Shown: piece after piece, positions 3,772-31,729 of the stretch
How the letters are laid out: each line of letters starts with the position of its first letter
How positions within the stretch are numbered: position 1 is the first letter of the stretch
Assembly (NCBI GenBank): GCA_035627015.1
Contig: DASPMO010000154.1
Span: forward strand, 3,537 to 67,536
Reading direction: 5' to 3'
From: Thermoanaerobaculia bacterium
GTDB taxonomy: Bacteria > Acidobacteriota > Thermoanaerobaculia > Gp7-AA8
DNA length: 64,000 bases
Notes under the pieces: model-generated
What the model was told of the DNA's origin: nothing
Database searches by the model: none
Seen by the model: the letters and a program-made list of their open reading frames with translations, nothing else
Made by a program: the position numbers and the translations under genes

Positions 3772-3779
3772 GGGCACGC

Positions 3780-5288: not shown

Positions 5289-5314
5289 CGCACGCGCCGA
5301 CGAAGGACGAACCG

Positions 5315-16723: not shown

Positions 16724-16875
16724 TTCCACAGCGGCGTTACTCCCTGCCAAGCCCCTTTCCGTGAGTCCGGAGGAACGCCGATATGCGGATTCTGTTGTAT
16801 GCTCGCGCGGACGCCCCAAAAGAGCGAACATCGCAGTCGGCGGCGCTCCGCGCACCGACAAGTGACCACTGGCCG

Positions 16876-17721
16876 ATGTCCGATCCACGCGATCTCCTCA
16901 TCCGCGAGCTGCCGCTCATCGAACGAATCACTCGTGCGATCTGCCGCCGCAATGGGCTCGATCCGGACTCCATCGAAGACTTCACGGCCGAGGTGAGACT
17001 GCGCCTGGTGAAGGACGATTACGCCATCTTGCGTGCGTACGAGGGCCGCAGCCAGTTCAAGACCTACATCGCCGCCGTGGTGCGGCGGTTGTTGATCGAC
17101 CAGCGCCGCCGCGACTGGGGCAAGTGGCACGACTCGGCCGAGGCGCAGCGCATTGGAGAGATCGGCGTCGACGTCGAGCGCTCGCTGCATCGGGAAGGGC
17201 GCAGCATCCAGGAGACGCATCGCCAGCTCGAAGACAAGTATCCTGGCGTCGCGCTCGAGACGATCGAGGTGATTGCCGCCCGCCTGCCGGCGAAGATGCG
17301 CCGCAACCGTGTCGACATCGACGAGGCCATGTCGGTCCAGACGCACGGCGATGCAGAGCGTCCCGTGGTTCAGGCCGATCTCGCCGCGCGGATCTCGACC
17401 GTCGTCTGTACGTTCATCGATGGCCTGCCCGAAGAAGATCAACTGCTCCTGCGTCTCCGCTTCGACTCCGAAATGACAGTTGCGCAGATCGCCCGTTCGT
17501 TGCACCGTGATCAGCAGGTGCTCTATCGCCGTCTGTACAAGCATTTCCACGACCTGCGCGACGCACTCACCGCGGCGAGCGTTGACGCGCAGTCCGTGGA
17601 GGAATTGATCGGGTCCGACACCACACTCCTCGACTTCCGCCTGAAAAAGCGCACCCCGAGTCCGTCCGAAGGAGATGAGAGCGCGGTAGCGGCACGGCAG
17701 GAGGAGGACACCTCGTCATGA
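16876..17721 (+). CDS. ECF-type RNA polymerase sigma-70 family factor
   Basis: Region-2-like: DFTAEVRLRLVKDDYAILRAYEGRSQFKTYIAAVVRRLLIDQRRRDWGKW. Region-4 HTH-like: LPEEDQLLLRLRFDSEMTVAQIARSL. The start is either ATG 16876 or the upstream ATG 16783. The stop overlaps the next gene start (ATGA at 17718-17721). Confidence 0.8.
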   Translation: MSDPRDLLIRELPLIERITRAICRRNGLDPDSIEDFTAEVRLRLVKDDYAILRAYEGRSQFKTYIAAVVRRLLIDQRRRDWGKWHDSAEAQRIGEIGVDVERSLHREGRSIQETHRQLEDKYPGVALETIEVIAARLPAKMRRNRVDIDEAMSVQTHGDAERPVVQADLAARISTVVCTFIDGLPEEDQLLLRLRFDSEMTVAQIARSLHRDQQVLYRRLYKHFHDLRDALTAASVDAQSVEELIGSDTTLLDFRLKKRTPSPSEGDESAVAARQEEDTSS

Positions 17722-20700
17722 CCGACGACATGAGCCGCTGCCCGACACCGGAACAGATTGCAGCGTTCGTCGCGGGGAACCTGTCGGGTGATGAATTGAC
17801 GATGGTGGCGGATCACTTGCGCGACTGTGAAGATTGCCGTTCGATCGCGGGCGACGCGGCGTGGGTCGATCGCGAGAGCGAGGAGGCCACGCCAGCGGCG
17901 GCGGAGCCGATCCGGCCGCCGCGGCGAATCAGCCCGTGGTGGCTGGCCGCGGCAGCCGCCGCGCTCGCGGGCATCGCCTACTTCACGGCGTGGCACGGGC
18001 TGGCGCCCGATCGCAATGCGGCCATTCACCGGTTGGTCGCGGCGGCCCCGCGCGACGGCCGCTACATCGAGCCTCGCATTACCGGCGGCTTCGCCTGGGC
18101 GCCGATGCTGCCGGTGCGGCGCGATGACGGCGAGGCACTCGAGCCGCGACAAATGAAGCTCGTCGGCGTTGCCGGCGAGGTGCTCGAAGAAGCCGCAAAA
18201 GACCCCTCGCGCGAGACACAACACGCAAGCGCGGTCGCCCATCTTCTGGCCGGACGGCCCAATGACGCGGCGGAAGTGCTTCGAACGCTGGCGTCACCGA
18301 CCGACGCGCGCGTCTGGAGCGATCTTGCCGCGGCTCGTTACACGGCCGGGGTCCAATCGAATCAGCCCATACGTTTCGCGGAGGCACTTGCCGCCGCGGA
18401 TGCCGCGCTGCGAATCGATCCCCGTCTTGCGGAGGCGCTCTTCAACCGCGCGCTCATCCTCGAGCGTCTCGGTCTGCGCGATCGCGCGCGCGAAGCGTGG
18501 CAGCAATACCTCGCCGCCGACACCGCCAGCGACTGGGCAAACGAGGCGCGGAAGCATCTCCAACAGCTTCAGCCCGTGAGCGACTTTCGCGAGGAGCTCG
18601 AGCGGCATTACGCGCACCTCGTCCGCGACGAGGCGGCAGCGCGCGCGCTGGCGCAACGCTACCCGCAGGAGGCGAGGCTGTGGGGCGAAACGCAAATCCT
18701 CGGCCGCTGGGCAGAGGCGTATCAGCAAGCGAAAAGCGAGGAGGCCGCGAACCATCTCCGGCTCGCACGCACGTTCGGCGACGAGCTGGCGCGGTCTCGC
18801 GGCGATCGGATGTTGCACGACGCTGTCGCCATCATTCTCGCCGCTGATGCGGAGCAGCGGCACGATCTGGCAGAGGCGCATCTCCACTTTCGCGCCGCCC
18901 AGCAGCGATTCATGGCCGCGAAGCCGATCGAGGCGGCGCCGCTGTTCGAACAAGCCGCGCGCGAGTTCGAGCGGGGGAAGAGTCCGGTCGTCTTGCTCGC
19001 GCGCTACTTTCTGGCGAACACCAAGTACGCGCGCGGCCGTCTGGCGGAGTCGCAGCCGTCGATCGAGCAACTCCTCGCCACCGCACCTCCGCAGTACCCG
19101 GCGCATCGTGCGCAGGTTCTCTGGCAGGCCGGACTCGGCAAGGCAGGCGACGGGAAGTGGGGAGCGGCGATCGATGCGCTCGACGAGAGCGTCCGCACAT
19201 TCGAGCGGCTGGGAGAAAAACGGTACGCCGCGGTTGTGCGCAGCATTCTTGCGGAGGTTTACGACCAGATCGGCGACCGGCGGGCCGCCGAGACGACGCG
19301 CATGCTCGCACTCCAGGAGCTGGGGCGTACCGAGGACTCGCGCCTGCAGGTGACCGTGCAGGCGGCCGCACGTGCAGCGGCGATGGATCGCGACTGGCCG
19401 GTCAGCCTTTCGTTCTTCGACCTGCTTCTGGCAATGCCGCGTCGCGGACGCAGCGATCTGCTGCAGGCGAACTCGCTCCTGTTCCGCGCCCGGATCCGTG
19501 GCCGCGTCGGACAGAGCGCCGGGGCGGCGGCGGATCTGGCCGACGCGACGGAAGCGATCGGCAGGATCGAAGATCCGGACGTGCGAGCGCGCGCGGAAGC
19601 CGATCACCTCGCGGTGACGGGCTTTCTCGCCGCGTCGCCTGCAGACGCGGTCGCACACCTGACGCGTGCCATGGAGTTTCATCGGACCAAGGGCCGCCGA
19701 ATGTTCCTGCCCGAGATGTATCTCGAGCGCGGCCGGGCGTACGCCGCATTGGGCAACCGGCCGGCGGCGTCGGCCGACTACGAAGCCGGCATCCAGGAGC
19801 TCGAGACGCAGCGGCGTTCGCTGCGTCCTGGTGACGAGCGGTGGGGCATCTTCGCGTCCGGGGCGGAGTTGTTCGACGAGGCCGTCGCGCTGGCGCTCGC
19901 GCGCGGCGATGAAGCAGCGGCGTTCGCATACTCCGAGAGAGCACGCGCGCGGGAGTTGCTCGACTCGATGGGCGATACACCCGCCGCGGAGGCGCTCGCG
20001 TCGCTGCCGCTGGCGCCGGCGGGGACGGTGCTGATCGAGTACGCCGCCCTCCCCTCCTCCCTGGTCACTTTCGTGGTGGACCGCCGCGGATTGCGCGTCG
20101 TGCAGACACCGGTCTCGCGGATCACGCTTGCACTCGAAACCGAGCGGCTCGCCGACAGCGCCCTAAGGAGCGACACGGCTCGCTTTCGCAAGGAAGCGGC
20201 GCTGCTCTATTCACGGCTGCTGATGCCGATCGCGAACGAGATCAGCGACGGCCGTACGCTCGTCTTCGTTCCCGACACGACGTTGAGCGTCGTGCCGTTC
20301 GCCGCGTTGATGGATGCGACCGGGAAGCACGTGATCGAGCGCAACCCGGTGGTGACGTCGCCCAGCGCGGCGGTGTTCGCGCGACTCTCCTCCCGCCCGC
20401 GCTCCGCCGAACGCACGCTGCGGTTGCTGCTCATCGCCGGTCCGGCGGGCCAGGAAGGGAACGTCCGCCAGCTCACGTCCGCACAACGCGAGGCGGATGC
20501 AGTGGCCGCCGCATACGACGAAACGATCGAGCCGAAGAACGACGACCGCGCCTCGTTCGAAAGCAGCGCGGCCGAAGCGGACGTCATTCACTTCGTGGGA
20601 CACGCCGACATCCCGGCGTCCGGTTCGGAGGGAGCGCTGGTCACCTCCCGAGGTGCGAACGGGCGGCTCGACGTGCGCAGCATCGCCTCGCTGCGCCTGA

Positions 20701-20996
20701 CACGCACGCGCGCCGTGGTGCTTGCCGCGTGCGGCACCGCGCGCGGACAGCGCCGCGCCGGCGAGGCGACCCTCAGCGTCGCGAGCGCATTCCTCGCCGC
20801 GGGCGCTCCGAGCGTCGTGGCGACCCTCTGGCCCATCGACGACGATCCCGCCGCGGAGTTCTTCCCGCGGCTCCATCGCTATCTCGCGGATGGCTTCAGT
20901 CCCGCTGAAGCGGTCCGCGCCACGCAGCTCGAATGGATTCGAAGGCGCGATGCCCCGCCCGGCCTCTGGGCGGCGGTCCAAATCATCGGTAGCTGA
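17718..20996 (+). CDS. anti-sigma (zf-HC2) - TM - TPR - CHAT fusion protein
   Basis: N-terminal CPTPEQIAAFVAGNLSGDELTMVADHLRDCEDC matches the zf-HC2 anti-sigma pattern. TM helix: WWLAAAAAALAGIAYF. TPR-like repeats are present (ALRIDPRLAEALFNRALILERLG etc.). C-terminal CHAT dyad: ADVIHFVGHADI ... RAVVLAACGTARG. The gene is translationally coupled to the sigma factor. Confidence 0.85.
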   Translation: MTDDMSRCPTPEQIAAFVAGNLSGDELTMVADHLRDCEDCRSIAGDAAWVDRESEEATPAAAEPIRPPRRISPWWLAAAAAALAGIAYFTAWHGLAPDRNAAIHRLVAAAPRDGRYIEPRITGGFAWAPMLPVRRDDGEALEPRQMKLVGVAGEVLEEAAKDPSRETQHASAVAHLLAGRPNDAAEVLRTLASPTDARVWSDLAAARYTAGVQSNQPIRFAEALAAADAALRIDPRLAEALFNRALILERLGLRDRAREAWQQYLAADTASDWANEARKHLQQLQPVSDFREELERHYAHLVRDEAAARALAQRYPQEARLWGETQILGRWAEAYQQAKSEEAANHLRLARTFGDELARSRGDRMLHDAVAIILAADAEQRHDLAEAHLHFRAAQQRFMAAKPIEAAPLFEQAAREFERGKSPVVLLARYFLANTKYARGRLAESQPSIEQLLATAPPQYPAHRAQVLWQAGLGKAGDGKWGAAIDALDESVRTFERLGEKRYAAVVRSILAEVYDQIGDRRAAETTRMLALQELGRTEDSRLQVTVQAAARAAAMDRDWPVSLSFFDLLLAMPRRGRSDLLQANSLLFRARIRGRVGQSAGAAADLADATEAIGRIEDPDVRARAEADHLAVTGFLAASPADAVAHLTRAMEFHRTKGRRMFLPEMYLERGRAYAALGNRPAASADYEAGIQELETQRRSLRPGDERWGIFASGAELFDEAVALALARGDEAAAFAYSERARARELLDSMGDTPAAEALASLPLAPAGTVLIEYAALPSSLVTFVVDRRGLRVVQTPVSRITLALETERLADSALRSDTARFRKEAALLYSRLLMPIANEISDGRTLVFVPDTTLSVVPFAALMDATGKHVIERNPVVTSPSAAVFARLSSRPRSAERTLRLLLIAGPAGQEGNVRQLTSAQREADAVAAAYDETIEPKNDDRASFESSAAEADVIHFVGHADIPASGSEGALVTSRGANGRLDVRSIASLRLTRTRAVVLAACGTARGQRRAGEATLSVASAFLAAGAPSVVATLWPIDDDPAAEFFPRLHRYLADGFSPAEAVRATQLEWIRRRDAPPGLWAAVQIIGS

Positions 20997-21028
20997 ACTC
21001 CAACACAACTCGGAGAGAAGGAGAACGT

Positions 21029-21745
21029 ATGCCTTACAAGGTGCAGTTCGTGGGATTGGTGTGTTTTTATCGCGAGCACGGCGGCCGGCAGGTGTTGCTT
21101 CCGGACGGCCGCGAGCCTGGCGACGGCATTGAACCGCACTACGCGTCGATCCGCGTCGCGAAGAACGACGTGCTCGAGGCAAGCGGCTGGGACGACAGCG
21201 CCGACACGGAGCAGGGCACGTACGTCCTTCCGCCGTGCTGGGTGAGCCTGGAGGGCGTCGACAGCGACGGGACGCTCAACACCTCGGAGCACGACAATCG
21301 TCTGCCGCAGCTGAAGCAGATCGACACGAACTTCGAGATCGACCCGGAGCGCGCGCAGACGGTCGCCCGCTTGCGCATCCGCCAGGGCTCCCTCGGCGCG
21401 TACCGCATCCCCGGCGGCACGGCGGCGATCTCTCAGCTCGACGTGCCGCACGACGGCGAGATCCACGTGGCGATCACCCCCCGCGACGGCTCGCCCGAGC
21501 GCACGCTGCGCCTCCGCCCCGGAACCGAAGTGATGCTTGCGAACATGGCGGCCAGCGGCTACACGACCAGTACGACGTTCAACAATCACTTCAAGATCTA
21601 CGAGAAGCTGAGCCTGCGCCCGGTGTCGCTGCACGAACCGTCCTCCGTGCCTCTGGTGCCTCCCTCAGACTCGCAGCATCCCGCGTTCCTGCGTGGCGAG
21701 CCGATCGGACTGTCCGTGGACTGCACGAACACCGGCTGCTGCTGA
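21029..21745 (+). CDS. hypothetical protein (last gene of the plus-strand cluster)
   Basis: 238-aa ORF, preceded by ggagagaaggaga (SD-like) about 8 nt upstream. It ends in CTNTGCC. No motif recognised. Confidence 0.55.
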   Translation: MPYKVQFVGLVCFYREHGGRQVLLPDGREPGDGIEPHYASIRVAKNDVLEASGWDDSADTEQGTYVLPPCWVSLEGVDSDGTLNTSEHDNRLPQLKQIDTNFEIDPERAQTVARLRIRQGSLGAYRIPGGTAAISQLDVPHDGEIHVAITPRDGSPERTLRLRPGTEVMLANMAASGYTTSTTFNNHFKIYEKLSLRPVSLHEPSSVPLVPPSDSQHPAFLRGEPIGLSVDCTNTGCC

Positions 21746-21751
21746 ACGGCA

Positions 21752-21976
21752 TCACAAGGGCGTGACCTGCCCGGCGACGTCGACGAATACCGGAACACCG
21801 TCGACGTCGTCGGGAATGTCGCCCGCTGCAGGCCGCCGATCGACCAAGACTTTCACGCCATAGCCCTCACCCGCGGCGACGATCCCAAGACCGCGCAGAC
21901 CGGCGAGGCGTCCGAGGAGTCGGAGCCGGAGCTCGTTCTTCGCGGCGCGCGCCTGCTCGAGCGTGGGGCCGCTCAC
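21752..21976 (-). CDS. small hypothetical protein, resembles the N-terminal pro-region of the adjacent protease
   Basis: 74-aa ORF. Its GTG start overlaps the protease stop (GTGA at 21973-21976). The pattern GLGIVAAGEGYGVKVLVD...VDGVPVFVDVAGQV loosely parallels residues of about 30-80 of the protease. Confidence 0.45.
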   Translation of the reverse strand: MSGPTLEQARAAKNELRLRLLGRLAGLRGLGIVAAGEGYGVKVLVDRRPAAGDIPDDVDGVPVFVDVAGQVTPL

Positions 21977-22908
21977 GAAGCGAACGTGACGCCGAGTGCC
22001 GACAGAACGTCACCGATCGGATTGGCGTAGCCGCGCCCCCAGTTGCCTGGACCGCCCGCGCGCGTATTGAGGAAGAGCAGCCCCACGGGCTCGCAGTCAC
22101 GCGTGAAGACGAGCGAGCCACTGTCGCCCGGCAGGCACCACGGCGCCGCGTCGCGCGATTCGATCTCGATCTGGCCCGAGAACGAGAGGCGGCCGCAGCG
22201 ATAGTCGACGTCGAAGAAGTCGAGCTCGATCGCGGTGATGATCCCCTGCGTCCGACCCGTCGTGCGACCGATCTTCTCCACCAAAAGCTGTGTCTCGGCG
22301 ATGGCAACCGTCGATCGCAGTCGCTCGGTCGGACTGAGCGCCAGCGGGTCGAAGGAAAGACCGGGGACGAGCCGTGCGAAAGCGCAGTCGACGCTCTGTC
22401 CTTCTGGCCGCAAACGGGGGTAGTCACCGCAGAGATGGCCGATGACGTCATTGGGAGAGCGCCCGGAGTCGGCGGCGGCGGGATGAAGAATCTCGTCCGC
22501 GTCGACGCCGCGATTCTGGGCGGCGAGTACGTGGTTGTTCGACACGACGCCGACCTCACCTCCCTTCACCGCGAAGAAGCCGATCGTGCCCGCGGGATGC
22601 TCGTAGTGCGCCACCGATGCGCCGATGGAGAGACTCCGCGTCGGCCGCGCATCGCTCGCCGGCAGTACGAGTCGCGGCCCCGTGTACTTGAGGTCCACCT
22701 CGCCAACCGCCTCTTTTTCGAGGTGCGCCAGCAGGTCGGGGTCGACGTCCTCCTCGCTGCGTGCGCGCACGGCCAGGCGGTGTTCGTCGGGTTTGCCGCC
22801 GAGCGCCACGCCGATGGCCATGTTGGCCTTCTCGTCGCTGCGCGCGGTCAGCCAGCGGGGATCGGCCGCGATCGAGCTTTTCAGATCACGAACGGAGCTC
22901 AATCTCAT
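21973..22908 (-). CDS. trypsin-like (S1/chymotrypsin-fold) serine protease
   Basis: Track ORF 21973..23433 trimmed to ATG 22908, which overlaps the upstream stop (ATGA). Candidate triad contexts: VVSNNHVLA (His), ADEILHP or SVDCAFARL (candidate Asp) and LPGDSGSLVF (the classic GDSG Ser). Confidence 0.8.
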   Translation of the reverse strand: MRLSSVRDLKSSIAADPRWLTARSDEKANMAIGVALGGKPDEHRLAVRARSEEDVDPDLLAHLEKEAVGEVDLKYTGPRLVLPASDARPTRSLSIGASVAHYEHPAGTIGFFAVKGGEVGVVSNNHVLAAQNRGVDADEILHPAAADSGRSPNDVIGHLCGDYPRLRPEGQSVDCAFARLVPGLSFDPLALSPTERLRSTVAIAETQLLVEKIGRTTGRTQGIITAIELDFFDVDYRCGRLSFSGQIEIESRDAAPWCLPGDSGSLVFTRDCEPVGLLFLNTRAGGPGNWGRGYANPIGDVLSALGVTFAS

Positions 22909-25295
22909 GACATACCTCCGGCGCGCTGCAGGCGGCGCCTCCGCACTTCCGCTGCGAACTCGCGCAGCGATGCCTCGTCGTTGAACGGTGACGTGGAGAA
23001 GAGCGTGTAAATGTCGGCGCGCATCGCGCCGTTGCGGATGTTGGTCAATGCGACGAAGAGCTCCGCAACCGCATCGCGATAGATGCCGACGACCGCCGAG
23101 CTGCGCGCCCACGTCGTGAGACATTCGTCGAGACTGTCGCGGAGGTTCTGCTGCAAGGCGTGCGGGAGCGAGTATGCGGCGTTGACCGCGGCGTGCACGT
23201 CCGCGAGAAAACCGGCCAGCTGCTCGACGGCATCGCTGCGGCTCGCGAGCGAGTAGACGATCGGGCTGATCGGATGACCGCCCGTGAGCGAGCGCATGTT
23301 CGCGGCGACGCTCTCCAACTGCTCGGCGATGCCTCCATGCAGGAACAGCAGCGCCACCAATGCGCCGGCGGGCGAACCGCCTTTGGAGATCCAGACGCGC
23401 ATCGCCTTCAGCACCTCCACCGCATCGCCGCACAGGCAGAGATAGACCACGGCCTGCATCGTTGCCATGACCGCGGCGGCACGGCGGCCGCGCAGCTCCC
23501 TCGCAAATCGCGCCAATCGGAACCGGTGGATGAGCAGGTCTTCCGCGGTCTGCTTCGACGGCGTTCGTGCGAGGCCGCGGTTGACGATGTCCGAGACGCG
23601 GCCGATCTCGTTCAGATCGGCCATGACCGGCGCGAGCTTCTCCACCGCGATGACCCCGAGACGGTCCATCGCCAACTCAGGAACGTCTTCGCCGAGTTGC
23701 GAATAAGCGGAGATCGCGGTGAGCAGCCCGTCGCTCTCCGCGCGCTCGTCCCCTGCGCCATCCCCGATGAGCGCGTCGATGGCGCTCATCGCCGTCTGCT
23801 TGTAGCGCTCGTTGTCGCTGGCGAGCATGCCTTGCAGCAGGCTCCCGACCAGCGGACGCTGGCGATCGCTGCGTGGCCAGTCGCGCCGCGCGATCGGAAT
23901 GGAGATCGAGAGCGGATCGAGCTCGCCGACGCGGCCGATCATCTGCGCCGCGAGCGCGCGCACGCCGTAGTCGCCGGCCTCCTCCGCCAGCGTGCGCAAC
24001 GCCGGGACGAGCATCGTCAGCACGCGGCGGTTGTGCGTGAGGGCGTGCTGCCAGATGAGCGTCGCGTAGGTTTCGTCGCGGAACCGGACGGCGTCGCCGA
24101 GACGCGAGGCATCACGGCCGATCTCGGCGCGGCAGCGGGTCAGAAGCCGGTCGTCCGACAGTGATTGGCCGGTCGTGTGCTCGTCGGTCTCGAGCTCCTG
24201 CGACTCCGGCCGGCGGCGACGCGGAAAGAGCTCGGTGTCGTTCTTCACGCGATCCGTGATCGCCCGCCGAATGGTTTCGAACTCGAACCAGCCGACCCCG
24301 CTCGCCTCGCGCGCGGAGTGCGCGAGCGCGAGCGTCAGCGCGAAGCACCAGGCGTCGACGTCCGCGGCGAGGTCTTTCGCGAACCAGTGGCCGCCGACAT
24401 CATTGAAGAGACGCAGTGCGGCGTCGACGTCGGGATCGCCTGTCGCAAAGAGATCGAGGAACTGTGCGACGCGCTGCAGCGACCGGAGCTCGTCGATCAG
24501 CCGGCTCCGGTGCGCGGCCGCGGCCTGGACGTGCGCCGCAGTGGCCAGCTTTTTCTTTTCGAGCCACTGCAGGCGCCGGTCGGTGCCGCGCGCCACGAGA
24601 TCGCGCGTGAGCGGCGGCACCACGCGGCATTCGAGGCACGTGTGGAGCTGGCGGAACTTCTCGATGTCCTGGGTTTCGGCGGTGAAGAGCAGAAATGCCG
24701 AGTTGGCGCGGAGAGTCTCGGCGATGCCTTCCCACCCGACCCGCGCGGTGCCGTCGAAGAAATCGTACAGTTGGCGGTTGTGGCGCGAGAAGACGTCCAG
24801 GAAGATCGTCGCGCGTCTACCGAAGTCCTCGACGTTGTCCACGACGGCATGAACGTCGATGCTCACGGCCCGCGCGAGCGGTTCGACTTTGAGCGTGTTG
24901 GCGCGCAGATTCGCTCGTCGCGCGACGAGCGTGCTCAGGTGCGCCGCCAGTGTCGCCTTGCCGGTGCCGCGCTCGCCGGTGAGGAGGAGCACGCGATGTT
25001 TCTCGAGATCCGCGACGAGAGCGCGGATCCAGTCCTCGTTCGCGACGAACACGGCGTCGAGCATGTCCGTTTGCTCGGCATCGATCTGCGACGCACTCTC
25101 CACCGAAAACGTGATCGGTTTGGAAGCATCGGGCAGCAGGTTGTTGACGAAGCTGCCGATGATGGTCGCCTCGCGTGCGTGAATGTCGCCGGTGTTGGCG
25201 CTCCCGTTGACCGAAAGACCATCGTCCGTCATCGGCGGCGGTGGCGTTGTCGTTGTCGATTCGGGCGTGTTGGGCGACTCGGGCGTTTCGGTCAT
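22905..25295 (-). CDS. large P-loop NTPase (STAND/AAA+-like) with long C-terminal alpha-helical repeat region
   Basis: Trimmed to ATG 25295, 10 nt after the upstream stop at 25306. Walker A: VLLLTGERGTGKATLAAHL. Walker-B-like: RRATIFLDVF. About 550 aa of helical (HEAT/ARM-like) sequence follows. The N-terminus is a low-complexity Thr/Pro tract followed by SVNGSANTGDIHAREATIIGSFVNN. Confidence 0.75.
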   Translation of the reverse strand: MTETPESPNTPESTTTTPPPPMTDDGLSVNGSANTGDIHAREATIIGSFVNNLLPDASKPITFSVESASQIDAEQTDMLDAVFVANEDWIRALVADLEKHRVLLLTGERGTGKATLAAHLSTLVARRANLRANTLKVEPLARAVSIDVHAVVDNVEDFGRRATIFLDVFSRHNRQLYDFFDGTARVGWEGIAETLRANSAFLLFTAETQDIEKFRQLHTCLECRVVPPLTRDLVARGTDRRLQWLEKKKLATAAHVQAAAAHRSRLIDELRSLQRVAQFLDLFATGDPDVDAALRLFNDVGGHWFAKDLAADVDAWCFALTLALAHSAREASGVGWFEFETIRRAITDRVKNDTELFPRRRRPESQELETDEHTTGQSLSDDRLLTRCRAEIGRDASRLGDAVRFRDETYATLIWQHALTHNRRVLTMLVPALRTLAEEAGDYGVRALAAQMIGRVGELDPLSISIPIARRDWPRSDRQRPLVGSLLQGMLASDNERYKQTAMSAIDALIGDGAGDERAESDGLLTAISAYSQLGEDVPELAMDRLGVIAVEKLAPVMADLNEIGRVSDIVNRGLARTPSKQTAEDLLIHRFRLARFARELRGRRAAAVMATMQAVVYLCLCGDAVEVLKAMRVWISKGGSPAGALVALLFLHGGIAEQLESVAANMRSLTGGHPISPIVYSLASRSDAVEQLAGFLADVHAAVNAAYSLPHALQQNLRDSLDECLTTWARSSAVVGIYRDAVAELFVALTNIRNGAMRADIYTLFSTSPFNDEASLREFAAEVRRRRLQRAGGMS

Positions 25296-25305
25296 GGCCA
25301 GGCTT

Positions 25306-26442
25306 TCACTGCAGCCGCTCGCGAAGATTGCGCGGCTGCACGAGCGTCTCGAGGTAATCCGACTGCGGGCCGGACAGGCTGGCCTGTGACGCCGCGTCGA
25401 TGACGCGACTGCGATAACCATTCACGACCTCGTCGTCCGGCTTCTCCTCGGGCAGCAACTCGGCGATGAGGTGCAGCAGCGCGGATTGCAGCTTGCGTTT
25501 CACGCCCGGCGTGCAGTTGAGCTGCGAGGTCTCCGTCACGACTTCGATGAGGACGGACGCCAGACCACTCTGCCCAGCGGCGGGAAGAAGTGTCTGCGCG
25601 CCGGCGCTCGGACCGCCGAGGAGGTGGGAGCCGCCGGAGGCGAACGGATCGCCGGCACTACCGTTGAACAATGTGCGCACGCCGCCGATCATCTGGACGA
25701 AATCCGTCGGGGTGCGCACCGACGTCACGCCGTTCTGCATGCCCGCGTCGAGCGCGCGAACTCCGGCGTCGAGGATCCGGCGGCCGGCCGCGATCCTGGC
25801 GAGCTCGTTCGCGTGGTTTTCCTTGACCACATCGAGCTCGTGCTTCTCCTTGGCCACCGCGACGGCGACGTGAACTTCCGGCACGTCGTGATGCAGCTCG
25901 ATGTTCTGCACGTGCAGCCCGACGGAATTGGCCACGGAGTTCACCGACGGGATCACCGCGGCAACGACGTCGCTCTCGACGCGCCGGAACTGATTGGTGA
26001 TGTCGATCCAGCGGCACGACGCGACGCGCTTCTGCAGCGCGCCGACCGCCGCCTCGCGGACGATCCGAAGCGGATCGCGGTTGCGGTTGGCTACCAGCTC
26101 GCGCGGGTCGCTGACGCGGTACGTCAGATCGATCTTCAGCGTGAACGAGTGCAGCATGTCGTCCATCTTCACGTCGGCACCGAATTGCGCGGAGAGGAAC
26201 GACGCGGCAGGAACGGCGTACGCGAAGCAGCGCGATTCTTTGCGCCACGGCACGAGCTCTTCGAAGAACCCCTTCTTCTTTGCCTCCTCGCCCGGCACCA
26301 GGACGCGGCGGATCTTCTCGCCGCCGCCGGCGGTGCTTTCGAGCACGACGATGTGGTGGCCGTCGAGAGCGTCGGCATTGTGTTCTTTCAAGAGCTGGTG
26401 CGTGAAGGTGAGATTTTCGGCCACGGTGATCTCCTCGTTCAT
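25306..26442 (-). CDS. hypothetical protein with SPFH/Band-7-like central region
   Basis: 378-aa ORF. Its ATG overlaps the upstream stop (ATGA at 26439-26442). FTLKIDLTYRVSDPRELVANRNRDPLRIVREAAVGALQKRVASCRWIDI resembles the SPFH core pattern, followed by a helical segment (AVAKEKHELDVVKENHANELARIAAGRR). Confidence 0.55.
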   Translation of the reverse strand: MNEEITVAENLTFTHQLLKEHNADALDGHHIVVLESTAGGGEKIRRVLVPGEEAKKKGFFEELVPWRKESRCFAYAVPAASFLSAQFGADVKMDDMLHSFTLKIDLTYRVSDPRELVANRNRDPLRIVREAAVGALQKRVASCRWIDITNQFRRVESDVVAAVIPSVNSVANSVGLHVQNIELHHDVPEVHVAVAVAKEKHELDVVKENHANELARIAAGRRILDAGVRALDAGMQNGVTSVRTPTDFVQMIGGVRTLFNGSAGDPFASGGSHLLGGPSAGAQTLLPAAGQSGLASVLIEVVTETSQLNCTPGVKRKLQSALLHLIAELLPEEKPDDEVVNGYRSRVIDAASQASLSGPQSDYLETLVQPRNLRERLQ

Positions 26443-27326
26443 CGGAATGCGGCGTCGAGATTGGCCGCGACGGAGTTGGCCCGGTCGGCGTGGGCGCCCA
26501 GCACGATTGCCTGCCGCGCGAGCGCGTCATGCGAGTCGCTGTCGACCGTGCCGTGCCAGGAGTGCTGCGCAACGAGCGTCTTCAAGGCCGTCACGTCGCC
26601 GCGACGGAGCCGCTCTTCAAAGTGGAGCCGGAAGCGCCTCCGTCCCAGCAGCGCGATCTCGGTCTCGGTGAGCAGGCGCGCAGCGAGCGGTGCGTGCTCC
26701 TCTTCGGCGAGCGCGCGAATCCGCTCCAGCGAACCATCACGGACCGGATCCGGCTCTGCGTCGTCGGCGACGGCGCGCGTCGCGGTGCACACCTCGGCCG
26801 CGGCCGCGCTGCGCCGCTCGAGCGACGGCATGGAAGTCGTGACGCGAGCGAGCAGCGGCACGGCCATCCGCGAAACCAGGCCGGCGAGGTCCGACGCGCG
26901 GCGGAACTGCGCGTCCTGCATGCACTGCGTCATCGACGCGCCGAGTTGCACGAGCGACGCGACCGTGGGCAGTCGCTGAAGAAACTCCGTCACGGCGAGG
27001 CGCCGCAGCTCGTCGACCTCCTGGAGCGCGCGATCCACGTCGGACTTCGCCGCGACGCAAACTGCAATCCCCGCGAGCGCGTCGGCACCGCGACGAATCG
27101 CGCGCACCGCATCGCGCCACTGTCTCGTGTCGACCGCGCGTGCCGCGGCGCCGATCGCGTCGTCACGAACTGTGACCAGCTTGCCGGCGCCGCGCGGACT
27201 CCCCTGCACCGCGCGCGTGTCCATCAGGACTCGGACGGCATCCCGCATCTCCAGTTCGAGCTTGCCGTCGGCGAGCCGGCCATACTCGTACCGCCACAGC
27301 AGATGTTCCAGTTCGCGGACGCTCAC
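26439..27326 (-). CDS. hypothetical protein
   Basis: The 664-aa track ORF 26439..28433 overlaps the MotB-like and MotA-like genes out of frame. It is trimmed to GTG 27326, which overlaps the MotB-like stop (GTGA at 27323-27326). The product is helical. No motif recognised. Confidence 0.5.
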   Translation of the reverse strand: MSVRELEHLLWRYEYGRLADGKLELEMRDAVRVLMDTRAVQGSPRGAGKLVTVRDDAIGAAARAVDTRQWRDAVRAIRRGADALAGIAVCVAAKSDVDRALQEVDELRRLAVTEFLQRLPTVASLVQLGASMTQCMQDAQFRRASDLAGLVSRMAVPLLARVTTSMPSLERRSAAAAEVCTATRAVADDAEPDPVRDGSLERIRALAEEEHAPLAARLLTETEIALLGRRRFRLHFEERLRRGDVTALKTLVAQHSWHGTVDSDSHDALARQAIVLGAHADRANSVAANLDAAFR

Positions 27327-27964
27327 CTCGTGTCCAACCCCGAGAAGTAGATCCGGATCTCGATCCGCCGGTTGCGCGAGCGTTGTTTGTGTGCAGGGCG
27401 AGTGTGGGCGTAGCCGTTCGCGGAGAGTTGTCGCTCGTCGAGCGCAGGATCGCAGCGTTCGCTGAGGAACCGCAGCACCGCCAACGCACGCGCCGTCGAG
27501 AGCTCCCAATTGTCGCGGGGATACGTAGACCGAGACATCGCGGTGCTGTCGGTGTGCCCTTCGATCTGAATCTGGTCGTACAGGCGCGATTGTGAGGTCG
27601 CGTCGAGCCGGTGAATGACAGCCGCGAGACGGCGGAGCAGCGCCGCGCCGCGCGGCTGCAAAGCGTAGTGACCCGACTCGAAAAGGATGCCTTCGCCGAA
27701 CGTGATCTGCAGCAGGTTCACATCCGGCTTCAGGACGATGGCGCCGCTGCGGATCTCGCTGGCGAACTCGCTCTCGAACACAGCGTCGAACCGCTGCTGC
27801 TTCTGTCGCGCGATCTCGGTCGCGAGACTGGTCGGATTGATGTTGTGCTGAACGAAATAGATCAGCATGAAGAACATCAGCAGCGAAGTGAGCATGTCGA
27901 TGATGCCGGGCCAGAAATTGACCTCGGTATCGACAGTCGGCGCGCGTAGGGACGTCGAGATCAT
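27323..27964 (-). CDS. MotB/OmpA-family stator subunit (peptidoglycan-binding)
   Basis: The N-terminal TM FWPGIIDMLTSLLMFFMLIYFV carries the conserved Asp (cf. MotB ..DFMT..MAFF). The C-terminal OmpA-like domain reads FESGHYALQP...IQIEGHTDS...NWELSTARALAVLRFL...GYAHTRP...NRRIEIRIY. Confidence 0.85.
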   Translation of the reverse strand: MISTSLRAPTVDTEVNFWPGIIDMLTSLLMFFMLIYFVQHNINPTSLATEIARQKQQRFDAVFESEFASEIRSGAIVLKPDVNLLQITFGEGILFESGHYALQPRGAALLRRLAAVIHRLDATSQSRLYDQIQIEGHTDSTAMSRSTYPRDNWELSTARALAVLRFLSERCDPALDERQLSANGYAHTRPAHKQRSRNRRIEIRIYFSGLDTR

Positions 27965-27973
27965 GCATTTGCC

Positions 27974-29176
27974 TCAATTCAACGTGCGCAGGATGAGAAT
28001 GACGACCACGGCGATCATCGCGCCGGCGGCAGCGAACCCGAACGTGCGCCGTCCCGTTGCCGTCTGACTGGCCTGCAGCGCGCGGGCGAGACGTTCCACC
28101 GACCCTTGTTGTGCGTTCATCGACGTTTGGATCTGCTGCAGCGTGGTCTCGTGTGTCTGGCGGAACGTCGTGACGATCTGCGGCAGGCGTTCGGTCAGAC
28201 TGAGAATCGCTCCCTGCACGTTCGCGAGTTGCGCGATGACGCCGGTCATTTCGCCCGTCACGCTCTGCAGCGGAGCGGTAGCCGCACGTTGCGTAATGGC
28301 CTCGATGTTTTGAATGACCGTCCCGAACGTGGTCTCCACGGCGGCCATCTGCTCCGCCGACCGCGCCTGCGCGGTGGCAAGGGACTGCAGGTTCTCGAAC
28401 GAGTCGCCGAGTTGACGCGAGAGTTTCTCCCACGGCGTCTCGTCATCAAACGCCGGAATCGTTGCCGGGAGCAGCTCTTCGGTAGTGAACCGCTCGAGCT
28501 GGTCATAGAACATCGATTGCGCGCGGGCGAGACCGAAGTTGAACAGCGAGACGACGATGGAGAAGAAGATGCCGGCGAGCGTCGCCGAGAACGCGGTCTT
28601 CTTGCCGGCGAGAATGCGCCCGAGGCTGCCGACGGATGCGGCCCATTGCGTGGCGGTCGCACCGGAGGATTGGTCGGGCATCGCCTGCTGGATGTCGGCG
28701 ACCATCAGGGAGAGGCCGACGAACGTCCCCAGCAGACCGAGCATCATGACTAGGCTCACGACGTATGCGGGAAGGGAGAGGCTCCACTTTGCGCTCTCAC
28801 TGAGAACGCTGCTCTGCTGCAGCGCGCCGACGTTCACCTTCACGTGCGCGTGCTTCATGCGCAAGATCGTGTCGAGCCGGTCGCCGATCAGCGTCGTCCT
28901 GGGAACGCCCTCGGATAGTTGCTGAAGGTCGACGCTGCCGCTGGCCCGCGGCACCTCGGCGTCTCCTTCGGCGGCAGGGGGCGTCTCGCCGGCGGCCTGC
29001 ATGCGGCGCAGTTTGTCGCGGACGTTCTGCAACGTAGTGAGCTCGTGCGACGTGTAGCGCTGCCAATGCCTGCTCGCGCAAAACGTGCCGAACACGCCAA
29101 AGAAGACGATGAGGCAGATGATCAACCGCCCAACGAGCGTGTTGTTCAGCCACAGAAGCTCGAGGAGCTGCGTCAC
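27974..29176 (-). CDS. MotA/TolQ/ExbB-family proton-channel protein with extended C-terminal helical tail and terminal TM anchor
   Basis: GTG 29176 overlaps the upstream stop (GTGA). Channel motifs: VVSLVMMLGLLGTFVGL (cf. ExbB/TolQ LGLLGTV.G) and AFSATLAGIFFSIVVSLFNFGL (cf. AL..T..GL..AIP....N). A Gln/Ala-rich helical tail of about 150 aa follows. The terminal hydrophobic helix is FGFAAAGAMIAVVVILILRTL. Confidence 0.8.
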   Translation of the reverse strand: MTQLLELLWLNNTLVGRLIICLIVFFGVFGTFCASRHWQRYTSHELTTLQNVRDKLRRMQAAGETPPAAEGDAEVPRASGSVDLQQLSEGVPRTTLIGDRLDTILRMKHAHVKVNVGALQQSSVLSESAKWSLSLPAYVVSLVMMLGLLGTFVGLSLMVADIQQAMPDQSSGATATQWAASVGSLGRILAGKKTAFSATLAGIFFSIVVSLFNFGLARAQSMFYDQLERFTTEELLPATIPAFDDETPWEKLSRQLGDSFENLQSLATAQARSAEQMAAVETTFGTVIQNIEAITQRAATAPLQSVTGEMTGVIAQLANVQGAILSLTERLPQIVTTFRQTHETTLQQIQTSMNAQQGSVERLARALQASQTATGRRTFGFAAAGAMIAVVVILILRTLN

Positions 29177-29679
29177 GGCCTGCGTTTCCTGCTCGTCATC
29201 GTCACGCCTGTGATGACCACTGTGCGATCGACCACGATGTCGCCTGCGCCAACCGAGCCGTGTACGTTCTCGCCACGCATCGCCTCGCCATCGCCGATGA
29301 CGCCGTGGATCTCGGCCTTGGGCCCGTGGACGTTCCGCACCTGAGCGTCGCCGTGCACCGGGCCGCGACTCGTGACGTGGCTCATCATGCCGCCCAAGCC
29401 AGAAACGCGAGTTCCGTCCTGGGCACCGGCCGGGCTTTCCGCACCGTCCAGCGGCAGGACGACGAGCCAGGAGCGATCGCGCGCGCCGGAGCGTACGCGT
29501 TCGAGCGCGCGTTGCAGTTCATCGTTCGCCGCACAGGCGATGAAGAACACCGCGTCGTCGATGGCATCGACGTCGTGTTCACGAACAGTGAAATCCGCCG
29601 ACTCCAGTGCGGCGCGGATGGTGCGCACACGCGGCGCCTGTTCGGGGTTGAACGAGAGATAAACATCGCCCATCGACAT
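29173..29679 (-). CDS. two-domain protein: N-terminal TIR-like/flavodoxin-like domain plus C-terminal bactofilin-like beta-helical repeats (tentative)
   Basis: 168-aa ORF. The N-terminus GDVYLSFNPEQAPRVRTIRAALESADFTV...AVFFIACA resembles the start of TIR-like domains (DVFISY...). The C-terminus VHGDAQVRNVHGPKAEIHGVIGDGEAMRGENVHGSVGAGDIVVDRTVVITG is a short-period V.G repeat of the kind seen in bactofilin/DUF583. Confidence 0.5.
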   Translation of the reverse strand: MSMGDVYLSFNPEQAPRVRTIRAALESADFTVREHDVDAIDDAVFFIACAANDELQRALERVRSGARDRSWLVVLPLDGAESPAGAQDGTRVSGLGGMMSHVTSRGPVHGDAQVRNVHGPKAEIHGVIGDGEAMRGENVHGSVGAGDIVVDRTVVITGVTMTSRKRRP

Positions 29680-29725
29680 ACCGTTCTCTCCTCGGGAGCG
29701 TCAGACGGACGCAGTGCACCGTTTT

Positions 29726-30361
29726 TCAGAGGTGGCGCAGCGTTTCGTCGCGATGGCGGTCGTATTCGGCCTGTGTGATCGAGCCGTTGCGCAGCAGACG
29801 GTCGAGCTCCGCGAGTCGCGCCTGTACACTCTCCGTTTGACTCGGAACGCCGACGAAAGCTGGCCGTCGTCCGTGCGCGAGCAGCCACCAGCGGCGGAAG
29901 AATTGGTACAGCCCACCGCCGAGTAGTGCGACGACGAGACACATCACGAAGAACAGCCAGCCAACGCTGATCCCCCAGAGGCACCCCACCGCTGCCCACG
30001 TGACCGTGAGGTTCCTCAGCCGCCCCAGTACCCACCGCCACGACGCCGCGAGGCCGAAGTACCACGACCAAAAGACGTACCCGGTGAAGAGGAATCGCGA
30101 CAACAACTGCGACGGCGTCGGCTTACGCCACTGCGGTGAAACAGGGGCGACAGGCACGTGCCTGGTGGCGTGCCGTTCCGTCGTCGTCGGCGCGGTGCTG
30201 GTCGTCGGTCGGTAGGACGGCTGCTGGACCAGCATCAGCACGGAGATCATGCCCGTGAACACGAAAACCAGCCAGGAGAACGCGATCCACGGATCGAGGA
30301 TCAGATGAGAGAACGCTGAAGGCGGAGCTTTGGCGGCCACTACCGATGTCGTCGCGGACAT
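29726..30361 (-). CDS. multi-pass membrane protein with C-terminal SHOCT-like domain
   Basis: Track ORF 29726..30475 trimmed to ATG 30361 (ggagga immediately upstream). Several hydrophobic helices are present (ILDPWIAFSWLVFVFTGMISVLML; WLFFVMCLVVALLGGGLY). The C-terminus RLAELDRLLRNGSITQAEYDRHRDETL matches the SHOCT pattern. Confidence 0.6.
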   Translation of the reverse strand: MSATTSVVAAKAPPSAFSHLILDPWIAFSWLVFVFTGMISVLMLVQQPSYRPTTSTAPTTTERHATRHVPVAPVSPQWRKPTPSQLLSRFLFTGYVFWSWYFGLAASWRWVLGRLRNLTVTWAAVGCLWGISVGWLFFVMCLVVALLGGGLYQFFRRWWLLAHGRRPAFVGVPSQTESVQARLAELDRLLRNGSITQAEYDRHRDETLRHL

Positions 30362-31392
30362 GTCCTCCAATGCGCTGCAGACGGACGGGACACCGTTCTT
30401 TTTGCATCGACAAAACGACCGACTGCCAGTAAGCACGCCCGCACATATCGCCCATTCAATTGAGGAGGAGTTCAATCGTAACGCGTGTGTCTCGTGCCTT
30501 CGTCTGTCCTTTCGTTCTCGCCTTCACCGTCAGCGCCTTTGCCCCGGGGGAACGGTGGCGCTCATCGCGATGGCGGTTATGGCGGCCCTGCTGGCTACGC
30601 TCAGCACGTTCGTGCGCGAGTTGCTGGAGGGCAAGCATTGGCCGGAGACGTTCTTCATTCCGGGGGTACTGGCAATTGTGCGATGTCACGAATTGGCAGA
30701 AGGAGCTGGCGATGCTCGCAATGCCGGACCACCGGAAAAGACAGCGCCTACAGCGGCTTGCAACCAGCCCCGGAGGCGCTGGGATCCGCTGACCGCAGCA
30801 AACAGGACCCGAGTGTCTTCACGATCAAACGCATTGCCGAGCGGCTCGACAACGGCGAGTGACCTCCTCGGCGAAGCAACACCCGACGTCATCGTCACCG
30901 ATCGCCGCCGGCTTCGCGACTCGATTGAACCGTGAGCGCATCGCACTCGACGCGGTAGTGAGTACCTGACAGCGCCGCTCGAGTGTCACTTCCGCGGGCC
31001 GGCGGAGCGTTTCATCGAACTCGAATTGAACTTCAGGAATCAAAGGAGATTGGCCGCTGCTGATAACCGAGTGCTGCACTCGCTCTGCGACAGTCGGAAC
31101 GGCTCGCTGCAGGTGATTCGCGTCATCGGTGACTCGATCTCCGACCTCCTTCTTGATAGGTACGAGGTTCTCCTCGATACCGCATGCAGACGCGGAGTGA
31201 ACGCGACGTCGTGGCGGTTTAGGTCCGGCCCGAAGGAATGACGCGGCTACCTTGCGCGAGGGGGATCATTATCGACAAGCACAACCCAAGTACGATTCCG
31301 TTCGCCTCAGCCATCGTAGCGACTGACAAATAACCCACCAAAAGCACGATCTTCCACGGCTGAAGGGTGTGTCCACGCACCAAATCGAGTGC

Positions 31393-31599
31393 ACCTTGCG
31401 AGTCGGCCGAAACCCGCAAGGTGACTCGCAAGGTCGCCCGCAAGTTACTCGGTTTCAGTGAGTTATCCCACCGTCTGTAGATCGACTTCTCTCTAACCTA
31501 AGTACCCGCGCCCTCCGGCCTGTCACACCGGAGGGCGCGGGAGCCCCGTCGGCCCCGCCAAAATAAGACGCTCACCAGCCGCCACTTGGCGGCTTTTTT
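31393..31599 (+). ncRNA. candidate structured non-coding RNA or leader (three hairpins ending in an intrinsic terminator)
   Basis: 12-bp stem: ACCTTGCGAGTC (31393-31404) pairs with GACTCGCAAGGT (31423-31434). 13-bp stem: CCGCGCCCTCCGG (31506-31518) pairs with CCGGAGGGCGCGG (31528-31540). Terminator hairpin at 31577-31599. No convincing ORF lies here, and the stretch looks less GC-rich than its flanks. Confidence 0.35.
31577..31599 (+). terminator. rho-independent terminator-like hairpin
   Basis: AGCCGCCA-CT-TGGCGGCT followed directly by TTTTTT (GCCGCCACTTGGCGGCTTTTTTC). Confidence 0.6.
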
Positions 31600-31729
31600 C
31601 GTTTCAGCACACGAAAGCGACGAAGTGCCTCCGTGTCTGGTGTCGGGATGGCGAACGTGTAGCCCCAAGCCGGACTTTCCTGGTTTCGGCTACGCCTGGG
31701 TAGGAAAACCGCCATCCCGTGGCTCTCCT

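Follow-up and report, generated by a model that had tools for sequence, protein, structure and literature searches.

Zorya is, to our knowledge, the only defence system that uses a rotary ion-driven stator, and three effector sets have been described for it. In the characterised Zorya systems ZorAB is the sensor unit, and a long cytoplasmic ZorA tail, required for defence, has been reported for all subtypes (PMC11946911). A locus with a related stator was analysed in a 64,000-nt stretch (the window) of contig DASPMO010000154.1, metagenome-assembled genome (MAG) DNA of Thermoanaerobaculia (Acidobacteriota). Nine tightly packed open reading frames (ORFs), g1–g9, ran on its minus strand from 30361 to 21752. 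Within them, g3 to g7 encoded a ZorA-like subunit (family ZorA′), a ZorB-like subunit (family ZorB′), a helical protein, an SPFH-like protein and a STAND-type P-loop NTPase (g7, locus tag VEO54_26295). On the sequences, the region was judged, with a probability of roughly 0.55, to be an undescribed Zorya-like conflict system, probably anti-phage or abortive-infection. The function of the cassette is predicted throughout, by computation.

A direct check of the sequence bore out the ORF coordinates and overlaps reported in an earlier sequence-only reading of the window, and the motifs cited there were all located in the translations (LGLLGTFVGL, AFSATLAGIFFSIVVSLFNF, WPGIIDMLTSLLMFFML, IQIEGHTDS, NRRIEIRIY, GERGTGK and GDSGS). 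Adjacent genes shared four-base overlaps (GTGA at 29173–29176, 27323–27326 and 21973–21976; ATGA at 26439–26442 and 22905–22908), and the remaining intergenic gaps were 46, 9 and 10 nt. Spurious long ORFs are common at the 66% GC of this genome. The nine ORFs were taken as real genes and not chance ORFs because their GC content at third codon positions (GC3) was 0.78–0.86 and homologues of each were found in matching order on other contigs. In the region 21000–31600, a consensus promoter scan gave no promoter-like site and a terminator scan gave only weak hairpins within genes. The window proteins were scanned with Pfam, PADLOC and NCBIfam models. Comparison loci (labelled L001, L002 and so on; L013 and L032 are one locus) were fetched by two independent routes, with either g7 or ZorA′ as the seed.

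The ZorA′ and ZorB′ stator pair

ZorB′ (g4, 27323–27964, minus strand, 213 residues) had a single transmembrane (TM) helix, in which Asp24 lies (WPGIIDMLTS), and ended in a peptidoglycan-binding domain of the OmpA type, which was matched by the Pfam OmpA model (E = 4e-14). The PADLOC ZorB1 model matched it over its full length (residues 8–205, E = 1.1e-27). The NCBIfam ZorB1 equivalog, whose cutoff is 400 bits, gave only 37 bits, and g4 was therefore assigned as a relative of ZorB and not as an orthologue. When compared with PDB sequences, the OmpA part was best matched by MotS, MotB and PomB; with the full-length alignment, from the TM region on, only the ZorB chains 8vvn_B, 8vvi_A and 8qyd_F were matched. 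The TM Asp was conserved in 10 of 11 distinct ZorB′ sequences. It was missing from the divergent ZorB′ of L013 (7051–7689), in which WASLMFLL replaced WPGIIDML, and the stator of this lineage may have lost proton conduction.

ZorA′ (g3, 27974–29176, minus strand, 400 residues) was composed of TM1 (residues 14–32), a cytoplasmic domain, TM2 (residues 142–160) and TM3 (residues 194–212), as seen in hydropathy and in an AlphaFold2 (AF2) model. TM3 was followed by a helical hairpin loop of ~165 residues and by TM4 (residues 378–396), which was kept in 10 of 10 aligned homologues. The model, built from 41 homologues, had a predicted local distance difference test (pLDDT) score of 71. Its head matched TolQ, ExbB, ZorA (8vvn_D, TMt 0.52) and PomA in Foldseek, with probabilities of 0.99–1.0 against TolQ, ExbB and ZorA and TMt values of up to 0.55. 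The A subunit had previously been taken for a MotA-like protein; the modelled g3 is instead of the 3-TM ExbB/TolQ/ZorA build, and not of the 4-TM build of MotA. Because its ~165 helical residues end in a conserved fourth TM helix, the short tail is predicted to be a membrane-tethered hairpin that re-enters the membrane, not the long free tail of ZorA. By sequence, g3 was matched by PADLOC ZorA1 over residues 134–324 only (E = 5.5e-8), by Pfam MotA_ExbB (E = 0.007), and by NCBIfam ZorA_4 and ZorA_2 with ~17 bits (cutoffs 500 and 100, respectively). The ZorA′ profile matched only designed helical bundles among PDB sequences, through the tail.

Stoichiometry aside, the A-subunit fold and the Asp-bearing TM helix of the B subunit that mark the 5:2 ion-driven motor family were both found. 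Flagellar, gliding, Ton or Tol genes were not seen adjoining the stator in 21 fetched loci with a stator of the ZorA′B′ family, and none of the window ORFs scanned (all but a few) was a flagellar, Ton or Tol-Pal gene, as the sequence-only reading had stated. Its view of the pair as Zorya-like and not as a motility or import motor was supported. The length of ZorA′ did not covary with that of g6, g5 or g7 across 14 loci (Spearman rho 0.13–0.17, p > 0.5); this comparison was meant as a hint of physical matching between ZorA′ and its partners.

The conserved core and its effector slot

The conserved unit was composed of five genes in a fixed order, ZorA′-ZorB′-g5-g6-g7, plus a variable upstream slot. 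The five-gene order was kept in the window and in ~17 distinct fetched loci. The core loci were L001, L005, L010, L013/L032, L014, L017, L019, L023, L025, L034, L035, L036, L038, L040, L041 and L042; in L011, ZorA′, ZorB′ and g7 were matched and the 2.6-kb stretch between them encoded g5- and g6-like ORFs. The g7 identity was as low as 21–30% across these loci. Their hosts included Thermoanaerobaculia and Pyrinomonadaceae (Acidobacteriota), a Bacteroidota MAG of the Saprospiraceae and, within the Gemmatimonadota, Longimicrobium terrae, which is in culture. The L. terrae copy (L034; GCA_014198875.1, contig JACHOW010000015.1, roughly 125.9–132.7 kb) makes the proposed function directly testable. 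All seven loci fetched through ZorA′ alone also contained g5-g6-g7.

The nine genes had been presented as one co-conserved unit, and this did not hold: only g3–g7 and the slot were kept, g1, g8 and g9 were accessory, and only very close relatives retained the longer set (all nine genes in L005, g2–g9 in L040). These two loci and the tightly overlapped, co-directional genes would suit an obligate nine-component system with the trypsin-like protease g8 as its main output. Such a system is highly improbable, since most core loci ended at g7 without g8–g9 (L001, L010, L013, L017, L019, L023, L025, L034, L035, L038, L041 and L042), g1 was missing from most core loci, and in L036 the g8–g9 pair was located ~9 kb from the cassette, beside a CHAT gene and away from g7. 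The earlier inclusion of the protease in a single system was dropped on the same grounds.

The g7 protein (22905–25295, minus strand, 796 residues) was assigned as a STAND-type NTPase of the nSTAND3/Avs5-like kind. In its AF2 model (pLDDT 80.5, predicted TM-score 0.76), residues 1–59 were predicted to be disordered, with no extra domain, and no effector domain was fused to the protein. The nucleotide-binding domain (NBD; residues ~60–230) carried Walker A (GERGTGKAT) and Walker B (IFLDV) motifs and was followed by helices to residue ~330, a β-hairpin-containing winged-helix-like module (residues 336–405) and helical repeats (residues 409–791). The modelled protein thus had the P-loop NBD, the helical and winged-helix module and the C-terminal repeats of a STAND protein. 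It matched NLRP14, NOD2, NLRP9, the Avs5 filament 9nc9, RFC, ORC and TRIP13 in Foldseek with E-values of ~1e-3. The nSTAND3 model (PF20720), the family of the Avs5 NTPase, gave 23.2 bits for the window copy (E = 6e-5, cutoff 27.2 bits) and was carried by 8 of 32 g7 homologues and also by the L040 copy. PADLOC gave only weak matches over short stretches around Walker A (E ≥ 2.6e-4), and the g7 profile matched only RFC and McrB among PDB sequences, around the P-loop (E ≥ 0.13). The family was small and distinct, with 240 clusters retrieved at E ≤ 1e-30 from 1.84 billion representatives, and several contigs carried two paralogous g7 systems.

The Walker A Lys was mostly retained in stator-linked g7 copies, and the motif was intact in the window copy (around residues 107–115). 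In the stator-less short paralogues P0012, P0013, P0016, P0017 and P0022–P0024, this Lys was replaced by Thr, Ala or Met (alignment A1), and these short forms may be non-hydrolysing scaffolds.

Two soluble proteins were encoded between the stator and g7. The g5 protein (26439–27326, minus strand, 295 residues) looked helical; its family shared the N-terminal motif LLWRYEYGRL, recognisable in most divergent loci, and 22 invariant columns (alignment A3), and its gene was always located between ZorB′ and the SPFH gene. No match to g5 was found in Pfam, PADLOC, NCBIfam or PDB, where its profile gave E ≥ 0.2. The g6 protein (25306–26442, minus strand, 378 residues) was a divergent cytoplasmic SPFH/Band-7-like protein in which an SPFH-like region (residues ~70–200) was followed by a helical insert that varied in length and by a conserved helical domain at the C-terminus (alignment A2). 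Band_7 (PF01145) was matched by 4 of 20 g6 homologues scanned, over the equivalent region, and two of these reached the cutoff of 23.6 bits (L010, 30.5; L036, 23.7; L019, 19.6; L008, 17.3). Neither the full-length g6 profile nor its N-terminal 200 residues matched an SPFH protein among PDB sequences, only polyQ, coiled-coil and chance-level matches being obtained. Hydropathy showed no hydrophobic segment and no membrane anchor in g6.

The gene directly upstream of ZorA′ varied by locus, and this slot was filled in 16 of 17 core loci. A TIR_2 protein was the most frequent occupant, in 10 loci (window g2, L001, L005, L017, L019, L023, L036, L038, L040 and L042), followed by a mini-CHAT protein of ~265 residues in four (L013, L025, L035 and L041). 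A Ser/Thr kinase (Pkinase) occupied the slot in L010, an EAD11 effector-associated domain in L014 and a 112-residue protein without an assigned domain in L034. A conserved core with a swappable slot for toxic domains is the signature of a conflict system. The earlier proposal of an output side made up of a P-loop NTPase and non-nuclease effectors was supported.

In the window, the slot was occupied by g2 (29173–29679, minus strand), with a degenerate, shortened TIR-like N-terminal domain and a Gly/Val-rich β-strand tail at the C-terminus. It was 32–33% identical to the L001 and L005 proteins, the former with a weak TIR_2 match, and carried a small deletion where the aligned homologues had an S-x-x-E-L-like stretch. 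TIR_2 matches of its positional equivalents ranged from 7e-23 to 1e-4 (L019, 7e-23; L038, 1e-20; L036, 7e-19; L023, 1e-13). Two short β-strand-like motifs, of the pattern hxhxxhxxxxhxhxN repeated twice, recurred at the C-terminus of most otherwise unrelated slot proteins, and this repeat is tentatively proposed to be a shared docking tag.

Among all components, g7 alone was universal. Roughly half of the loci seeded with g7 also had the stator. A stator-less arrangement was composed of a SHOCT gene, a 75-residue gene, g5 and a short g7 that had lost the Walker A Lys (L002, L015, L018, L022 and L029), and a third arrangement was composed of g6-g7 alone (L004, L007–L009, L026–L028 and L031). Since the NTPase module also exists by itself, the stator is not an obligatory component; it may have a role other than that of sensor, and the NTPase one other than that of output.

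The flow of the signal could be reversed. In that case g7 with g5 and/or g6 would be the sensor and hub and, like Avs/NLR proteins, would bind an invader protein by way of its helical repeats. ZorA′B′ would be one of several interchangeable membrane effectors or anchors and would leak protons, its plug being released on activation so that the cell is depolarised in an abortive infection; further effectors would be supplied by the TIR, CHAT and kinase proteins. This arrangement is considered rather unlikely. It is consistent with the universality of g7, with the SHOCT-g5-g7 and g6-g7 variants, with the resemblance of the C-terminal helical repeats of g7 to Avs sensor domains, with the lack of a recognisable enzymatic effector other than the stator in L034, and with the membrane protein g1, which takes the place of the stator in the short variants. 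However, ZorAB is the sensor in characterised Zorya (PMC11946911), and the peptidoglycan-binding domain and the TM Asp were conserved as in working stators. A second, membrane effector also seems redundant where the slot is nearly always filled, and the short stator-less paralogues, without the Walker A Lys, may work differently.

A tblastn search of 72,556 plasmids gave no match for g7 and, for g3, only a distant pair with other partners on the Deinococcus radiophilus plasmid pRadio2 (L039; NZ_CP086382.1, 99.6–106.8 kb). There, a ZorA′-like gene, annotated as a methyl-accepting chemotaxis protein, and an OmpA-family gene were followed by genes for a 525-residue protein of no assigned function and an 878-residue β-helix protein, with tubulin-like, vWA and Cas6 genes nearby. 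This locus suggests that there are further short-tailed stator systems with other partners. A 404-residue distant relative from Tateyamaria, found in a housekeeping context with a single 845-residue partner, was excluded.

Relation to described systems and proposed mechanism

The cassette shared with Zorya types I–III an ExbB/TolQ-type 3-TM A subunit with a cytoplasmic helical extension after TM3, a B subunit of the MotB type that carries an Asp in its TM helix and is anchored to peptidoglycan by an OmpA-like domain, the encoding of soluble partners in one operon and a defence-island setting, and ZorB and ZorA were its best PADLOC matches. Its partners were different from those of Zorya, being a helical protein, an SPFH protein, a STAND NTPase and a swappable TIR, CHAT or kinase protein, and the extension of ZorA′ was ~165 residues followed by TM4, in contrast to the free tail of ~500 residues in E. 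coli ZorA (residues 223–729). ZorC, ZorD, ZorE, ZorF and ZorG were not matched in PADLOC, and g1, g2, g5, g6, g8 and g9 had no PADLOC match at E ≤ 0.1. The cassette was therefore not assigned to Zorya types I–III, as it had neither ZorC/D/E/F/G partners nor a long free tail. An assignment to type III was rejected, with no ZorF or ZorG match and a gene order different from zorFABG. Matches to ZorA and ZorB only thus agreed with the earlier claim that this was not an already described subtype. Full-text literature searches up to mid-2026, with term searches inside Zorya papers and a 2020 study of conflict systems (PMC7159879), gave only three Zorya types and no stator–SPFH–STAND cassette.

Avs5 has a fused N-terminal SIR2 effector. 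Like Avs5 and other STAND proteins, g7 joined a NOD-like P-loop module, with affinity to nSTAND3, to α-helical repeats on its C-terminal side. Unlike Avs5, it had no fused N-terminal effector, the candidate effectors being encoded by separate genes, and unlike Avs proteins it invariably had g5, g6 or both as partners, and often a membrane stator as well. The sequence similarity of g7 to solved STANDs was marginal, and in contrast to them some members lacked the Walker A Lys.

Variable TIR, CHAT/caspase-like, kinase and EAD effectors around a conserved NTPase, common in CHAT/TPR-rich soil lineages with multiple paralogues per genome, were described by Kaur, Burroughs, Iyer and Aravind (eLife 2020; PMC7159879), who linked such systems to multicellular prokaryotes. 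The cassette resembled these systems in all of these features and differed from them in its coupling to a 5:2 stator and an SPFH protein; the text of that study contains no MotA, Zorya or SHOCT, and SPFH is found in its reference list only.

Beyond the observed parts, with their order, conservation, slot and neighbourhood, a mechanism can be inferred. As a proton-driven stator of the 5:2 family, ZorA′ and ZorB′ would be anchored to peptidoglycan through the OmpA-like domain of ZorB′ and would report envelope perturbation, as proposed for Zorya (PMC11946911). The ZorA′ hairpin, held in the membrane at both ends, would couple this signal to g5 and to an oligomeric SPFH scaffold of g6 near the membrane. 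The g5/g6 assembly would gate the nucleotide switch and the oligomerisation of g7, which would free or activate the slot effector, perhaps recruited through its C-terminal tandem β-hairpin-like tag. The infected cell would then be halted by NAD+ depletion, by proteolysis or by phosphorylation. In this specific form, a peptidoglycan-anchored 5:2 motor mechanically coupled, through a tethered hairpin and a cytoplasmic SPFH cage, to an NLR-like STAND switch that releases interchangeable, C-terminally tagged effectors (TIR, CHAT or kinase) would be a fourth Zorya-type immune system with a distinct mechanism; this is put forward tentatively, as one possible arrangement.

SPFH-fold proteins acting with membrane machines also have precedents outside immunity. 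HflK/C-type SPFH cages regulate membrane proteases, and the cassette could by analogy be a non-immune envelope machine, in which a stator driven by the proton motive force, an SPFH protein and an ATPase act in quality control of the membrane or cell wall, in stress signalling or in developmental regulation, in parallel to FliL-MotAB or HflKC-FtsH, with TIR, CHAT, kinase and ECF sigma/anti-sigma proteins as signalling parts. The cassette resembled the SPFH scaffolds of membrane machines (FliL around MotAB, HflK/C around FtsH, flotillins) in that an SPFH-fold protein was encoded with a MotB-type stator, on which it presumably acts, and in that g6 had a helical region after the SPFH domain like cage-forming SPFH proteins. 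SPFH-fold FliL rings are known as partners of MotAB stators (PMC8794807, PMC6426602). An ECF sigma/anti-sigma pair was located beside the window locus, sigma-70-like genes were found at L004, L035 and L041, and in soil hosts rich in CHAT/TPR proteins, CHAT or TPR genes as neighbours are weak evidence of defence. Nevertheless, an envelope machine is improbable in view of the patchy distribution (240 clusters among 1.84 billion), the several diverging paralogues per contig, the swapping of TIR, CHAT, kinase and EAD11 in the slot, and the Septu-like, LmuA-like nuclease, NACHT, toxin-antitoxin and IS neighbours. Unlike FliL and HflK/C, which are periplasmic, g6 had no TM segment or signal peptide and should be located on the cytoplasmic face.

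Several observations weigh against the reading as a Zorya-like conflict system. ZorA′ lacked the long ZorA tail, which is regarded as essential in Zorya I; the hidden Markov model match of ZorA to g3 was weak and partial, with NCBIfam scores far under the cutoffs; and Foldseek ranked TolQ, ExbB and ZorA alike for g3 and could not separate them. Around one half of the loci seeded with g7 had the g7 module but no stator. Walker B of g7 had no second acidic residue and several family members had lost the Walker A Lys, so NTP hydrolysis by this family may be weak or dispensable. By its sequence g5 had no recognisable fold. The window copy of g6 gave no Pfam match, and the description of this protein as SPFH-like accordingly stood for its family, through the Band_7 matches of the homologues, and not for the window copy itself. 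Likewise, g2 was TIR-like by position and homology, its equivalents being matched by TIR_2, and the window copy gave no Pfam match of its own. Some core loci, such as L034, had no recognisable enzymatic effector, and the pattern behind the proposed C-terminal tag was loose and its alignment short.

If the Zorya-like reading is correct, ZorAB-type stators would be a general membrane module for immunity with a fourth effector set, and the short, membrane-re-anchored ZorA′ would offer a natural test of what the ZorA tail does. Envelope sensing would be connected to NLR-type switches, in a first link of rotary stators, flotillin-like scaffolds and NLR-type immunity, and bacterial SPFH proteins, for the most part without a clear function, would gain a concrete, testable role. 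The architecture joins three well-studied modules in an unexpected way and is coherent and widely conserved.

Accessory genes and genomic neighbourhood

The first gene of the operon, g1 (29726–30361, minus strand), encoded a membrane protein with two to three hydrophobic segments and a C-terminal SHOCT-like helix, and a GGAGG was located upstream of its ATG at 30361. Its Pfam matches, SHOCT (E = 2.4e-4) and GvpG (E = 5e-6), were both below the cutoff. Homologues were found in L002, L004, L005, L015, L018, L022 and L029, mainly at the head of paralogous stator-less variants, and g1 is accessory to the core, in most loci of which it was absent.

At the other end of the operon, g8 (21973–22908, minus strand) encoded a trypsin-like serine protease of the Nal1 type, matched by Trypsin_2 (E = 9.3e-6, 26.9 bits against a cutoff of 27.6) and Nal1_C (E = 3.5e-4). 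Its His/Asp/Ser catalytic triad was intact, and SNNHV, VDCAFA and GDSGS were invariant in 7 of 7 sequences. It was constantly coupled to g9 (21752–21976, minus strand), a 74-residue protein that might be an inhibitor, chaperone or substrate of g8, although this is a guess. Copies of g9 with 53–74% identity followed g8 in L005, L015, L018, L020 and L022, and genes for 72–73 residues did so in L004, L036 and L040. Besides the window, the pair was present in L004, L005, L015, L018, L020, L022 and L040, and in the truncated L016 and L033.

A linked module on the plus strand (16783–21745) converged on g9. It was composed of an ECF-type sigma factor (16783–17721) and a zf-HC2 anti-sigma-TPR-CHAT protein of 1092 residues (17718–20996), both assigned by Pfam, and of d1, a 238-residue protein (21029–21745) whose stop codon was 6 nt from that of g9. 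All seven fetched g8–g9 loci that extended far enough showed the convergent pair of d1 and the zf-HC2 anti-sigma-TPR-CHAT gene adjoining g8–g9 (L004, L005, L015, L018, L020 and L022, and L040 as judged by gene sizes and Pfam). In L023, this pair directly followed g7. A sigma-70-like gene was located near L004 and near L035 and L041, two loci with CHAT in the slot. The g8–g9 genes are thus an accessory pair that belongs with the neighbouring ECF sigma/anti-sigma-CHAT/d1 module. With g8–g9, the sigma factor, the anti-sigma-TPR-CHAT protein and d1 may form a separate protease-signalling system.

The reported location of the operon beside CHAT proteins and a Septu-like gene was confirmed by Pfam and PADLOC. 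On the plus strand, a 1099-residue protein (31586–34885) carried an N-terminal CHAT domain and a C-terminal MBL-fold nuclease-like domain matched by LmuA (E = 1.3e-69) and also by Avs1a effector models; from its sequence, it resembles a protease-nuclease conflict protein that stands alone. Within 35883–38284 (plus strand), a single ORF of 680 residues was matched by PtuB at residues 1–193 and by PtuA at residues 247–674 (PADLOC E = 2e-183) and looks like a fusion of the two, a Septu-like protein. The window also held two more CHAT proteins and the ECF sigma factor, and past 39 kb its genes were of the housekeeping kind, for ABC/HlyD transport and glycosyltransferases. Other cassette loci adjoined NACHT, TIR, caspase, vWA, PP2C, toxin-antitoxin (TacAT-like) and IS genes.

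Several further ORFs were observed in these surroundings. A small ORF resembling a helix-turn-helix regulator (35883–36245, plus strand) preceded the Septu-like gene, and a Cys-rich ORF of 189 residues with a hydrophobic N-terminus and a GC3 of 0.92 (34945–35514, plus strand) was located between the CHAT-nuclease and Septu-like genes. Five large ORFs (905, 719, 626, 1526 and 548 residues) with coding-like GC3 occupied 1054–14784 on the plus strand; the four scanned had no Pfam match, and the ORFs had no significant PADLOC match. Beside two different g7 loci, a cluster recurred on the opposite strand (L001, 12634–22376; L002, 1196–8336), with products of ~580, 56–60, 176, 516 (AAA, PF00004) and 143–149 residues, and could be another linked system.

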